A stretch of DNA of 64,000 nucleotides, from the NCBI GenBank assembly GCA_001873105.1, contig MNYN01000011.1, forward strand, positions 11,716 through 75,715. The letters are read 5' to 3'. Numbering within the stretch: the stretch's first letter is position 1; every line of letters starts with the position of its first letter. The translations under genes and the position numbers were made by a program. Of this stretch, positions 54,887 to 58,661 are shown one piece after another. The notes beneath the pieces were generated by a model. It saw only the letters and a program-made list of their open reading frames with translations, was not told where the DNA came from and searched no databases. This DNA comes from Flavobacteriaceae bacterium CG2_30_34_30 (GTDB taxonomy: Bacteria > Bacteroidota > Bacteroidia > Flavobacteriales > Flavobacteriaceae).

Positions 54887-55624
54887 TTAAGAAACACCTA
54901 AAATTTGGAGCATTAAAAAGCCGATAATTATAGTGACTGAAAAACTCATTAGTGTTCCTATAAGTACATATTCGGTTTGTTTTCTCCCACTGCTTTTTCC
55001 TTTATCATTAAATCGCAGTATCGATTTTGCTGCAATTAAAAATCCAATAGCGGCTATGTTATAGGTTAGTACAAAAGTGAGTACTAAAATTCGTTCAAAA
55101 ATTCCTATATATCGACCGGCTTTTTGTAAACTGTCGAGCTCGCCATCTTTTGCTATTTCCACTTGCCAGTGTTTGGTGGCCTTGCCAATGATAAAACCAA
55201 TGGGTGAAATTGCAAGTAAATAACCAATAAATAGAACCATCGTGTTTTTTGAATGTAAAAAATTATCTATAAATGGCATAATTTGTTGAAAATTTGCAGT
55301 TAGATATAACCAAGCTAAAAGCAAAACTAGCAAATGAAAAAGTTGATCTAAAAGAAAATACTTTAAGTTATCTTCTTTTTTATTTAATTTCCACAAATCA
55401 ATAAAAAAGTGCGTGATTATAATGAGTATGGGTATAAAAATCTGACTCCATTGTTGTAAAAACAAATAGGTTAAAAATCCGGCAATACCTGCATGAATAT
55501 ATAAAAATGGAGCTCTTGCCTTTTTTTCTCTTTTTTGTTGAATGTATTTAACAGGTTGAAGCGCAAAATCAGTCAGCAAATGTGCCAAAAGAAGTTGTAG
55601 TGCTATAAGTATACTTTCATTCAT
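54887..55624 (-). CDS. DUF3307-family membrane protein (SatE-like partner of SatD)
   Basis: AHLLTDF, HAGI, THFFID, DQLFH, GIFER, AAKSILRF, GTLMS. ATGA overlap with the satD stop. Confidence 0.85.
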   Translation of the reverse strand: MNESILIALQLLLAHLLTDFALQPVKYIQQKREKKARAPFLYIHAGIAGFLTYLFLQQWSQIFIPILIIITHFFIDLWKLNKKEDNLKYFLLDQLFHLLVLLLAWLYLTANFQQIMPFIDNFLHSKNTMVLFIGYLLAISPIGFIIGKATKHWQVEIAKDGELDSLQKAGRYIGIFERILVLTFVLTYNIAAIGFLIAAKSILRFNDKGKSSGRKQTEYVLIGTLMSFSVTIIIGFLMLQILGVS

Positions 55625-56274
55625 CGGTTATAATTTTTAGTCATTACATGGTCAAAACGCTGTAAAAGCAATTGTATTTCTTCCCAGCCTGCAGCTTTTT
55701 TTCGGAGGTTGATTGCCGCTTGACTTCGAGATACTATGTCTGCTATTTGTTGTTCCTTTAGCCCTTTTAATAAATAATATACCACCTCTGCCGATGCGGT
55801 TGACCATTTATCAGTAAGCATATCTAAAAATTTTAAACTTACTAAAAATTCGCCATTAATTTCTTCATTTGAGGTTTTTAGGCTTAGTTTTTTATTTTCA
55901 AATTTCATATTATCCAATGTTTTTCCTGAAAAATGAAAAGCTTCTCCATTAGACTCTGCAATAGCATTTTCATTATACTCTGCCACCCCTATTCCAATGG
56001 CGATGCGCACATCGGCTGTAGGATTGGTTGTTTTTTTAAAATTTGTGCTTTGCACTTTTAGCACCGATGCCTTCAGTTGTAATGCAATTTGTAATGCATA
56101 CTTTGGTTGTTTTACTATTCCTTGAAAACTATCCCCTCTAAATATCGTAAACATCGCTTCTTTTTGTGAAGCTATTTCTTCAAATTCATCTTTTAAATGA
56201 GCCAATACCTTTTGAAAGGTTTTCTTGTCGTAGGCTGTTGAATTTATTAAATCGGCTGTTAAAACGGCTACCAT
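55621..56274 (-). CDS. SatD-family protein: nucleotidyl-cyclase-like domain plus C-terminal HTH
   Basis: VLTADLINS, FRGDSFQG, VRIAIGIG, NGEAF; HTH KEQQIADIVSRSQAAINLR. Confidence 0.85.
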   Translation of the reverse strand: MVAVLTADLINSTAYDKKTFQKVLAHLKDEFEEIASQKEAMFTIFRGDSFQGIVKQPKYALQIALQLKASVLKVQSTNFKKTTNPTADVRIAIGIGVAEYNENAIAESNGEAFHFSGKTLDNMKFENKKLSLKTSNEEINGEFLVSLKFLDMLTDKWSTASAEVVYYLLKGLKEQQIADIVSRSQAAINLRKKAAGWEEIQLLLQRFDHVMTKNYNR

Positions 56275-56293
56275 AGTGCGAGTTTAGTTTGAT

Positions 56294-56325
56294 CAAATAT
56301 AAGTCATTTGACTTATAAAAGCAAA
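56294..56325 (-). promoter_or_regulatory. Sigma-A promoter of satD: TTTG (56325-56322) - N20 - TATATTTG (56301-56294)
   Basis: Both Bacteroidota consensus boxes at the canonical 19-21 nt spacing, 20 nt before the ATG. Confidence 0.7.
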
Positions 56326-56375
56326 TTATAAGCCTTATGCCTTATAAATAGATATTATAAGCTTTTAGACTTATA
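56298..56375. promoter_or_regulatory. Array of three 20-bp palindromes TATAAG-N8-CTTATA at a 29-bp period (putative operators)
   Basis: 56298 TATAAGTCATTTGACTTATA; 56327 TATAAGCCTTATGCCTTATA; 56356 TATAAGCTTTTAGACTTATA. Confidence 0.8.
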
Positions 56376-56433
56376 ATATTAGTGAAAATACATTATTTAT
56401 CAAAAACATGACGAATATGAAGGTAAATGAAAC

Positions 56434-56441
56434 TATTTTTG
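56434..56441 (+). promoter_or_regulatory. Sigma-A -7 element (TATTTTTG) for the Gre-like gene
   Basis: Exact TAnnTTTG match 19 nt before the ATG at 56461. Confidence 0.55.
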
Positions 56442-56460
56442 CAAACTTAAAATTTCACTT

Positions 56461-56904
56461 ATGATAAAAAGACAACTTTTTGTAAAATGTATGGAGATGC
56501 TAAATCTTCAGATGGAAAAATACAAAAAAGAAATTCAAACAGTTAGGGAGGCTTTAGAAAATGAAAGCTCAAAATCAGAAGATGATGATGGGGGAAAAAG
56601 TGACATGTTAACAGAAATTGAAAAATATTCCAAATACATGGAAAACACAGAAAATTTAAAAAATCAATTAAAGCGAATTGATATCACGCAAGAGCATGAG
56701 GTGGTTACCAATGGAAGTTTAGTGGAAACTGAAAATAATTTCTTTTTTATAACGGTGGCATTAGGAAAAATAGATGTGGGGGATTCCAAAAATTATTATT
56801 CCATTTCAACAGATGCACCTATTTACACGCATTTAAAAGGAAAAGAAGCAGGAGATAATTTTAAATTTAATAACCTTGACTATAAAATAATTCAAGTATA
56901 TTAA
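56461..56904 (+). CDS. GreA/GreB-fold protein (coiled coil plus Gre C-terminal-like domain)
   Basis: N-terminal coiled coil with acidic tip SEDDDG; VTNGSLVET, ISTDAPIY, GKEAGDNFKFN. Confidence 0.65.
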   Translation: MIKRQLFVKCMEMLNLQMEKYKKEIQTVREALENESSKSEDDDGGKSDMLTEIEKYSKYMENTENLKNQLKRIDITQEHEVVTNGSLVETENNFFFITVALGKIDVGDSKNYYSISTDAPIYTHLKGKEAGDNFKFNNLDYKIIQVY

Positions 56905-56905
56905 G

Positions 56906-57583
56906 TTAATGTTTGTACAGGGAAGCCCCATTTAAATCAGTGGTAAGCACATCACTCATCAACTTAAAATAAGGTTGTACTAGCTGAAAATGATATAAAA
57001 TAGTTTTAATAAAATCTGTAGAAAGCACTTCTTTGTCTGCATAGTAATGAGCAACAAAGAAGTTTTTATTTTTTATTAAATCAATAGCTTTATGATTTTT
57101 GTCAAAGCCTTTTGGGGCTGTTTTCACTTGGTCTGTGGTATCTAATCCATCAAATACTTTTTTAAATTCCGGCTGTTTAAGAATATCTCTTATTTCTGTA
57201 TCATCTGTTTCAAATTCTTTACGAATACGCAATAAATCAGCAGGATTAGGCTCAAAAAACCCACAGCCAATAAAGGAATTTCCAGGTTCTAACTGTAAAT
57301 AATAACTACCTCTTCTGTGAACTCCAGCACGTATCCAGTTGGCGCTCCGATTTGTTTTATACGGCACTTTATTTTTACTAAAACGTACATCGCGATAAAT
57401 GCGAAAAATTTTCAACGTTTCTATTTCATCAAAGGTATTTAAGCCATTGGTTATTTCGTTGAAAAATAATTTAAGGGTCTTGTCTTCTTGTTGAAATTTG
57501 GATTTGTTTTCGGAAAACCAATCGCGATTATTATTTAATTTTAATTCCTCCAAAAGTGGAAAAAGAGTGTCAGATACTTTCAT
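56906..57583 (-). CDS. DUF2461-family protein
   Basis: NNNRDWF, FRIYRDVRFSKNKVPYK, KTAPKGF. ATG at 57583 avoids overlap with corA. Confidence 0.9.
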   Translation of the reverse strand: MKVSDTLFPLLEELKLNNNRDWFSENKSKFQQEDKTLKLFFNEITNGLNTFDEIETLKIFRIYRDVRFSKNKVPYKTNRSANWIRAGVHRRGSYYLQLEPGNSFIGCGFFEPNPADLLRIRKEFETDDTEIRDILKQPEFKKVFDGLDTTDQVKTAPKGFDKNHKAIDLIKNKNFFVAHYYADKEVLSTDFIKTILYHFQLVQPYFKLMSDVLTTDLNGASLYKH

Positions 57584-57593
57584 AAACAAGTAG

Positions 57594-58661
57594 TTAAAGC
57601 CATTTTTTCTTTTTAAAATAAAATAACATACCAATAATAAGCAAAATCATCACAATCCAAACCACATAATAGCCATATTTATAAGTGAGCTCCGGCATAT
57701 TTTCAAAATTCATACCGTAAACACCGGCTATAAAAGTAAGCGGAATAAAAATGGAAGCCATAATAGTTAGCACTTTCATAATTTCATTCATTTTGTTAGA
57801 AACGCTGTTCATATATAAATCCAACAAGCCGGATGCCATGTCACGAAACACTTCAATGGTTTCAATTACTTGTATGGTGTGGTCATATAAATCACGTATA
57901 AACACCTTAATATCAGGATTAATAAAAGGTTCCTCTATTTTTTCAAACCTACTAACCACTTCCCGTAACGGATAAACAGAACGCCTTAAATTTAAGGTTT
58001 CTCTGCGCAGTAAATGTAATTTGTTTAACGTGTTTTTATCGGGATTTTCTAAAAGTGCTATCTCAACATCTTCTAGTTTTTCTCCAAAAGTTTCCAAAAT
58101 AATAAAATAATTATCCACAACAGAATCTAAAAGGGCATATAATAAATAATCGGCGCCTCTTTTTCTAATAAATCCTTTACCTTCTTTGATTCGTTTTCTT
58201 ACGCTGTCAAAAACATCGCCAGTGCGCTCCTGAAAGGTAATGAGTGTATTTCCTTTTAAAATAAAACTCAATTGCTCATCATCTATGGTATCGTCAACAG
58301 AATCTAACATAAACATTTTTAAAACCACATGAAGGTATTCTGTGTGCTCTTCAATTTTAGGGCGCTGTCCTATACTTAAAATATCTTCCATTGTAAGTTT
58401 GTGAATTCCCAAATAGCTACACACTTCCTCAATAGTGTTTTCATCGTGTAATCCATCGATATTCACCCAGCTTATTCCGGAAAAGGACTCTTTCATTTGT
58501 ATGACTTCTGCAATGCTTTTTAATTTTTTTTCTTCATAGTAGTCTTCAAAATAATGAATCAAATTAATATCTACTTGAGTCATTTTTTGTACACCAGTAA
58601 AGAGTAAAGTCCCCGGAGCTAATCCTGATTTTGATTTTCGTTTGTTTCTTTTTCTTGCCAT
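57594..58661 (-). CDS. corA: Magnesium/cobalt transporter CorA
   Basis: WVNIDGL, EDILSIGQRPK, PLTFIAGVYGMNF. Confidence 0.95.
   Translation of the reverse strand: MARKRNKRKSKSGLAPGTLLFTGVQKMTQVDINLIHYFEDYYEEKKLKSIAEVIQMKESFSGISWVNIDGLHDENTIEEVCSYLGIHKLTMEDILSIGQRPKIEEHTEYLHVVLKMFMLDSVDDTIDDEQLSFILKGNTLITFQERTGDVFDSVRKRIKEGKGFIRKRGADYLLYALLDSVVDNYFIILETFGEKLEDVEIALLENPDKNTLNKLHLLRRETLNLRRSVYPLREVVSRFEKIEEPFINPDIKVFIRDLYDHTIQVIETIEVFRDMASGLLDLYMNSVSNKMNEIMKVLTIMASIFIPLTFIAGVYGMNFENMPELTYKYGYYVVWIVMILLIIGMLFYFKKKKWL

Follow-up and report, generated by a model that had tools for sequence, protein, structure and literature searches.

Introduction

A window of 64,000 nucleotides from Flavobacteriaceae bacterium CG2_30_34_30 contains a satD gene whose putative promoter is covered by three evenly spaced palindromes, and the locus raises the question of which protein reads these palindromes and with what effect on transcription. 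An initial annotation, made from the letters of the window, proposed that the palindromes are operators for the helix-turn-helix (HTH) domain of SatD itself, the product of the gene that they precede. A whole-word literature search found no work on SatD DNA binding, SatD operators or the function of DUF3307, the product of the next gene. The proposal was followed up here by pattern searches, protein profile and fold searches and a comparison with about 90 related loci.

The palindrome array in the window

A pattern search and a repeat finder, which reported a three-copy family, both placed TATAAG-N8-CTTATA at 56298, 56327 and 56356 with an exact period of 29 bp, so the units described in the initial annotation stand at 56298-56317, 56327-56346 and 56356-56375. 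The promoter-proximal unit 1 (TATAAGTCATTTGACTTATA, 56298-56317) has perfect 9-bp arms (56298-56306 and 56309-56317), and unit 2 (TATAAGCCTTATGCCTTATA, 56327-56346) has 6-bp arms. The distal unit 3 extends over 56352-56379; its core TATAAGCTTTTAGACTTATA lies at 56356-56375, within perfect 10-bp arms ATATTATAAG (56352-56361) and CTTATAATAT (56370-56379). Arms of 8 bp and 10 bp had been claimed earlier for units 1 and 3; the latter figure is right, while the former falls one base pair short.

Nothing similar had caught the eye elsewhere in the window, and the pattern search, also when it tolerates one mismatch, bears this out. Across the 2.54-Mb genome assembly (34% G+C) the three array units are the sole exact matches to TATAAG-N8-CTTATA. 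The genome holds 748 copies of TATAAG and 681 of CTTATA, from which about 0.2 exact palindromes are estimated by chance, and the array is far beyond chance.

A weight matrix trained on 31 units from nine other genera only was used to scan the genome. The window units took ranks 1-3 (29.5, 27.7 and 26.1 bits). Because the next-best site lies about 11 bits below the array units, no other target is indicated in this genome, and a wider regulon was rejected (15.2 bits for that site vs 26-29 for the three units). Among the weight-matrix sites, the arm sequence is conserved across the nine genera and the N8 spacer drifts.

Geometry of the satD promoter

The array lies inside a 186-bp gap (56275-56460) between satD on the minus strand and a Gre-like open reading frame (ORF) on the plus strand. 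Promoters of Bacteroidota follow the consensus -33 TTTG, about 20 nt, -7 TAnnTTTG. Read on the minus strand, the region runs ...CTTATAA TTTG CTTT TATAAGTCAAATGACTTATA TTTG ATCAAACTAAACTCGCACT ATG. The consensus matches a putative -7 box, TATATTTG (TAnnTTTG, 56294-56301, minus strand), whose TATA is shared with the right arm of unit 1, and a putative -33 TTTG at 56322-56325 (minus strand), 20 nt upstream of the -7 box. With the promoter elements assigned by consensus only, unit 1 takes up the -33/-7 spacer and extends into the -7 box, and unit 2 starts 1 nt past the -33 TTTG, the same geometry as originally described.

Fusion of the right arm with TAnnTTTG recurs in relatives, at an offset of +16/+18 from the unit start; a perfect TAnnTTTG stands at the fused position in just 29 of 201 units of relatives. 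In many relatives, L014, L019, L020, L025, L030 and L005 among them, the sequence TATTTG(A/T)T fills all the spacers between units. The end of each unit is thereby a -7-like box (TAnnTTTG), with the TTTG of each such box about 20 nt before the next box. From their sequence, these arrays look like tandem overlapping promoter-operator units.

SatD and its predicted fold

The satD gene (55621-56274, minus strand) is single-copy in the genome and encodes 217 residues, which comprise a palm domain (about 1-135), a linker helix (137-155) and a four-helix HTH domain (159-215). The match to Pfam SatD (PF16264) is marginal: residues 6-196 score 29.4 bits (E 7.8e-07), where the cut-off is 29, and the Pfam model at E 1e-8 misses the window's own genome. 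When a profile of 115 diverse homologues was compared with the PDB, residues 3-102 matched class III adenylyl/guanylyl cyclases (3mr7, E 7e-6; Ma1120, 4wp9). AlphaFold2 with the 115-sequence alignment gave a model of pLDDT 96.4 and pTM 0.93, in which a beta-alpha-beta-beta-alpha-beta palm and the linker helix 137-155 are followed by helices 159-169, 174-181, 185-194 and 197-215. In a Foldseek search of the PDB, every one of the top 50 matches was a class III cyclase or a GGDEF domain (E 3e-5 to 6e-4), and the best class III cyclase match to the palm had E 3e-5, probability 1.0 and a TM-score of 0.43 on the query. The cyclase-like N-terminal domain that had been suspected from the sequence is thus found by both profile and fold searches. 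The models indicate that SatD is a cyclase-like palm domain joined to a confident HTH (helices 174-181 and 185-194).

Like class III cyclases (Ma1120, 4wp9; 3mr7) and GGDEF domains, SatD has an N-terminal palm fold with two metal-ligand Asp residues in alignment: across the 115 sequences D8 never varies and D48 is kept in at least 90%, and HMM alignments place both on the two metal-ligand Asp of 3mr7 and Ma1120. The SatD domain is shorter (about 135 aa) than that of class III cyclases. The PDB cyclase alignments end at residue 102; by eye, residues 110-117, where the transition-state Asn/Arg would be expected, read GEAFxxSG with neither conserved, and no catalytic residues beyond the two Asp were recognised. 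Fusions of a cyclase to an HTH, for example those of the mycobacterial Rv0386 type, are multidomain proteins of far greater size.

Residues 151-199 gave PDB matches that were all weak, to DeoR-type (E 1e-3), MarR/AdcR, HipB, GerE/RcsB/LuxR and sigma chains, and three SatD homologues have precomputed sigma-70 region 4 (PF08281) matches in the HTH. The predicted recognition helix spans residues 185-194 (QAAINLRKKA, codons at 55693-55722 on the minus strand) in the AlphaFold2 model, and coincides with the helix SQAAINLR (184-191) picked out in the initial annotation.

The operon partner and the neighbouring genes

The second gene of the operon (54887-55624, minus strand) encodes a membrane protein matching Pfam DUF3307 (PF11750, E 2.4e-23). 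The start codon of this gene and the stop codon of satD lie in a shared stretch of 4 nt (ATGA). The comparative set consisted of 70 oriented satD loci of the same bacterial family (L004-L073), whose upstream regions were read. DUF3307 lies directly downstream of satD in all 70, with the 4-nt overlap in 42 and a distance of at most 25 nt in every locus. The overlap suggests translational coupling, and with it a fixed stoichiometry of the two products.

Neighbours on the other side are far less constant: just 5 of the 70 loci have the Gre-like gene beside satD, and 6 have DUF2461. Because DUF3307 is present in 70 of 70, the array is assigned to satD-DUF3307. The divergent Gre-like ORF (147 aa, 56461-56904, plus strand) has a sub-threshold GreA_GreB C-terminal match (E 0.045, 14 bits, cut-off 26.9) and a possible -7 box, TATTTTTG, at 56434-56441. 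The initial annotation had allowed that the array may also affect this gene. Conservation gives that idea no support, and the array stops 55 bp short of the putative -7 box; regulation of the Gre-like gene was set aside.

Beyond the Gre-like ORF lies a DUF2461 gene (56906-57634, minus strand, E 1e-57). In four relatives (L006-L009), DUF2461 immediately precedes satD on the same strand and the array separates the two, so the Gre-like gene looks like an insertion, or a loss, here. PADLOC defence annotation returned nothing for SatD and a noise-level match only for DUF3307.

Palindrome arrays upstream of satD in relatives

Of 121 genomes sampled within this bacterial family, 74 encode SatD homologues, and the source names of the homologous proteins are Flavobacteriaceae such as Ulvibacter, Gillisia and Salegentibacter. 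An array detector was employed that chains 6-N8-6 palindromes sharing one half-site at 27-30 bp, with a score of at least 6. Phased arrays were detected in 61 of the 70 satD upstream regions, vs none in 700 dinucleotide shuffles and none in 140 coding controls. The earlier proposal had staked itself on satD homologues carrying upstream palindrome arrays, and by the automatic detector most do; nine loci have no array by this detector, three of which show one by eye.

The 61 detected arrays hold 2-5 units, most often 3, and in about 55 of them the array begins and finishes on whole palindromes. The last unit ends 1 to ~60 nt before the satD ATG, varying among loci. The 135 unit spacings are 28 bp (91) or 29 bp (44), and never 27 or 30, which the detector allowed. 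The choice between the two follows the protein: the ten loci closest to the window (proteins of 213-223 aa, 47-74% identical) all have TATAAG at 29 bp, a second long clade and L060 also have 29 bp with other half-sites, and the ~200-aa SatD clade has 28 bp with a few mixed arrays. Examples of arrays that mix 28 and 29 bp are L021, L024, L055, L059 and L072. The long SatD proteins (213-230 aa, 29 bp) have a C-terminal ...AAGW/VGW motif and a pre-HTH loop shorter by two residues.

Of the deviations from each locus's half-site consensus in relatives' arrays, 161 affect one arm only and 9 have their mirror image in the other arm. Since the arm changes are uncompensated, half-site recognition by a dimeric protein fits, and hairpins or cruciforms do not.

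Co-variation of half-site and recognition helix

Across the family, the array half-site consists of TAT and a variable triplet. The half-site goes with the recognition helix: TATCGT with QNTVSER (7 of 7 loci), TATCA[CT] with QNAVSxR (6/6), TATTCC with Q[DN]AVSKR (5/5), TAT[TA]AG with QSAVSQR (14/14), TATTAG with QGNISQG (8/8), TATCGG with QS[TS]xSE (3/3) and TATAAG with SQ[AS]A[IV]NxRKK (10/10). Two loci with QSVVNQH have TATAGG, and two with QS[AV]VNRH have TATGT[GA].

When alignment columns were ranked by shuffle-corrected mutual information with the triplet, uncorrected for phylogeny, residue 190 led the field of about 205, with residues 186, 187 and 184 in third, fourth and sixth place. 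For four of the top six columns to lie among seven consecutive residues, the chance is ~7e-6 under this phylogeny-uncorrected ranking. The co-variation of palindrome and recognition helix that the initial annotation had named as a check is therefore seen, with residues 184, 186, 187 and 190 tracking the triplet.

For phylogenetic contrasts, a tree was built without the helix columns, and the triplet changes 27 times on it. Independent contrasts for E190/CG, Q190/AG and K190/TxC gave about 3, 4 and 3 concordant cases and 0 discordant, each underpowered (p 0.06-0.25). Helix and half-site switch together in two sister pairs, L061 (R190, TATGTG) vs L072 (Q190, TATTAG), and L024 (D186/K190, TATTCC) vs L046 (N186/G190, TATCAT). 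An approximate code emerges at position 190, with E accompanying CG, Q accompanying AG, K accompanying TxC and R accompanying GT. Because residue 190 is L, H, S or Q in the TATAAG clade at an unchanged half-site, the residue-base code is context-dependent.

Breadth beyond the family and the meaning of the period

The window SatD is matched by 1643 clusters at 50% identity, and satD is also found in other Bacteroidota and on Pseudomonadota replicons. Other Bacteroidota families have, for example, TGAAACA-N8-TGTTTCA units at 29 bp upstream of satD. These belong to a divergent SatD clade (L079-L085 and L088, other Bacteroidota, f24) with the HTH ...RDQIWKRRKTL..., and in these loci an orphan left half-site, TTGATACA, follows the units just before the start codon.

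A tblastn search of plasmids found a satD-like gene followed by an annotated DUF3307 gene in Salinivibrio, Vibrio lentus and Sphingomonas. Upstream of satD, Vibrio lentus carries TTAGCC-N6-GGCTAA three times at 28 bp, Salinivibrio and Pseudoalteromonas carry two units each at 28 bp, and Sphingomonas shows no obvious array. On the conjugative plasmid of Vibrio lentus (L094, NZ_AP025501.1), satD-DUF3307 lies beside an AAA ATPase and an Rpn family nuclease. On the Sphingomonas insulae plasmid (L095, NZ_CP048421.1) it lies beside an ImmA/IrrE peptidase and a 'Pycsar system effector family protein', and a small ORF overlaps the satD start. Judged by their annotation, these plasmid neighbours appear defence- or mobility-flavoured.

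Vibrio lentus, Salinivibrio and Pseudoalteromonas use -35/-10 promoters. Because the 28-bp register recurs in these hosts, the period is regarded as a property of SatD and not of the host promoter, and the idea that it mirrors Bacteroidota promoter geometry, with each unit placed in a -33/-7 spacer, was rejected. That geometry may explain why the arms begin with TAT. A period of 28-29 bp corresponds to about 2.7 turns at 10.5 bp/turn, which would place consecutive dimers on different sides of the helix, and the strictly kept spacing suggests contacts between neighbouring SatD dimers.

Proposed mechanism and alternatives

The three palindromes are best read as SatD operators through which satD-DUF3307 would be repressed, a case of negative autoregulation to which a probability of roughly 0.78 is given. 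Direct autoregulation by SatD, as first proposed, appears strongly supported by the arrays at 61 of 70 loci and by the co-variation with the helix, and direct binding of the three palindromes by SatD is highly probable. A SatD dimer would bind each 20-bp unit (TAT+AAG, N8, CTT+ATA) through its two C-terminal HTH domains. The proximal dimer, placed on the -33/-7 spacer and the -7 box, would exclude RNA polymerase and so repress satD-DUF3307, and neighbouring dimers would touch at the 28/29-bp spacing and bind cooperatively. Repression is the sign of regulation that we favour, at fairly good odds, because unit 1 covers the core promoter; the preference over activation is drawn from this position of the operators only. 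Control by a ligand through the cyclase-like domain, such as the release on nucleotide binding or synthesis that the initial annotation had suggested, is plausible.

SatD might instead bind the array as an activator or a ligand-dependent switch and not as a plain repressor, for example if the upstream units recruit RNA polymerase and the proximal unit represses only at high occupancy. Units 2 and 3 do lie upstream of the -33 element, the usual position for an activator, the distance from array to start codon varies among loci (1 to ~60 nt), and the HTH of some homologues has the sigma-70 region 4 matches mentioned above. The occupation of the spacer and -7 box by the proximal unit is, however, a placement typical of steric repression, and relatives repeatedly show the right arm fused to a -7 box, which leaves activation unlikely.

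A shade less likely still is that the array serves as a platform for assembly. The 28/29-bp register would line up SatD dimers into a short helical nucleoprotein filament, with composite two-metal active or sensing sites formed where neighbouring cyclase-like domains meet; DNA occupancy and a nucleotide signal would then be coupled and would jointly gate expression of the DUF3307 membrane protein. If true, the locus would be a self-contained, horizontally mobile module of a stress, toxin-antitoxin-like or defence kind.

Two divergent genes share the intergenic region in which the array stands, and it could be imagined that another regulator binds the palindromes, or that they serve the Gre-like gene, their proximity to satD being incidental. 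This is very improbable. Arrays persist while just 5 of 70 loci have the Gre-like gene next to satD, and the half-site co-varies with the helix of SatD itself. A global regulator would need further copies of the motif, and this genome has none. The putative -7 box of the Gre-like gene lies 55 bp past the end of the array.

Least probable of all is action through nucleic-acid structure (DNA cruciforms or leader RNA hairpins) or a neutral tandem duplication, since, although the arms are perfect 9-10 bp inverted repeats and the last unit abuts the start codon in some relatives and must be transcribed there, the hairpin/cruciform reading was rejected for want of compensatory change in the arms (161 one-sided, 9 matched), the arm sequence itself, beyond mere pairing, is conserved across nine genera while N8 drifts, the window's satD mRNA would not contain the units because all three lie at or upstream of the -7 box, and neutral duplication would not preserve the 28/29-bp spacing across phyla.

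Relation to known systems and significance

For SatD as operator-bound autorepressor, the closest described logic appears to be that of HipB on the hipBA operators, or of lambda CI on OR1-OR3. In Escherichia coli hipBA, HipB acts on four TATCC-N8-GGATA palindromic operators. Like HipB, SatD is an HTH protein encoded by the first gene of a two-gene operon, and its promoter is likewise covered by several palindromes with an 8-bp spacer and half-sites beginning with TAT; some SatD relatives use TATTCC-N8-GGAATA. The SatD profile matches HipB chains weakly over residues 153-196, at E 0.05-0.08 and below significance. Unlike HipB, SatD has a cyclase-like palm before the HTH and a strict 28/29-bp register, and its partner is the polytopic membrane protein DUF3307 and not a kinase toxin.

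In lambda, the OR1-OR3 operator triplet overlaps a promoter and is bound by cooperative dimers of a local HTH repressor, CI or Cro. The satD locus shares the three adjacent palindromes overlapping the promoter of a locally encoded HTH protein. It differs in HTH family and in spacing, its cooperativity is suggested by the fixed spacing only, and it has no bistable switch or second promoter pair.

The Pfam pair SatD (PF16264)/DUF3307 (PF11750) is named after the sat locus of Streptococcus mutans. The window conforms to this pair, with a SatD just above the cut-off followed by a DUF3307 gene. SatD/DUF3307 is a widespread pair without a described molecular function, and a role as sequence-specific autoregulator would be the family's first testable activity. 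The comparison adds an explicit residue-to-base correlation for SatD; with such an approximate code, operators would be predictable from the SatD protein sequence, and the family would form a natural set of orthogonal repressor-operator pairs. The combination of a cyclase-like palm, an HTH and an invariant register suggests that oligomerisation, DNA binding and possibly nucleotide sensing are coupled in an unusual way.
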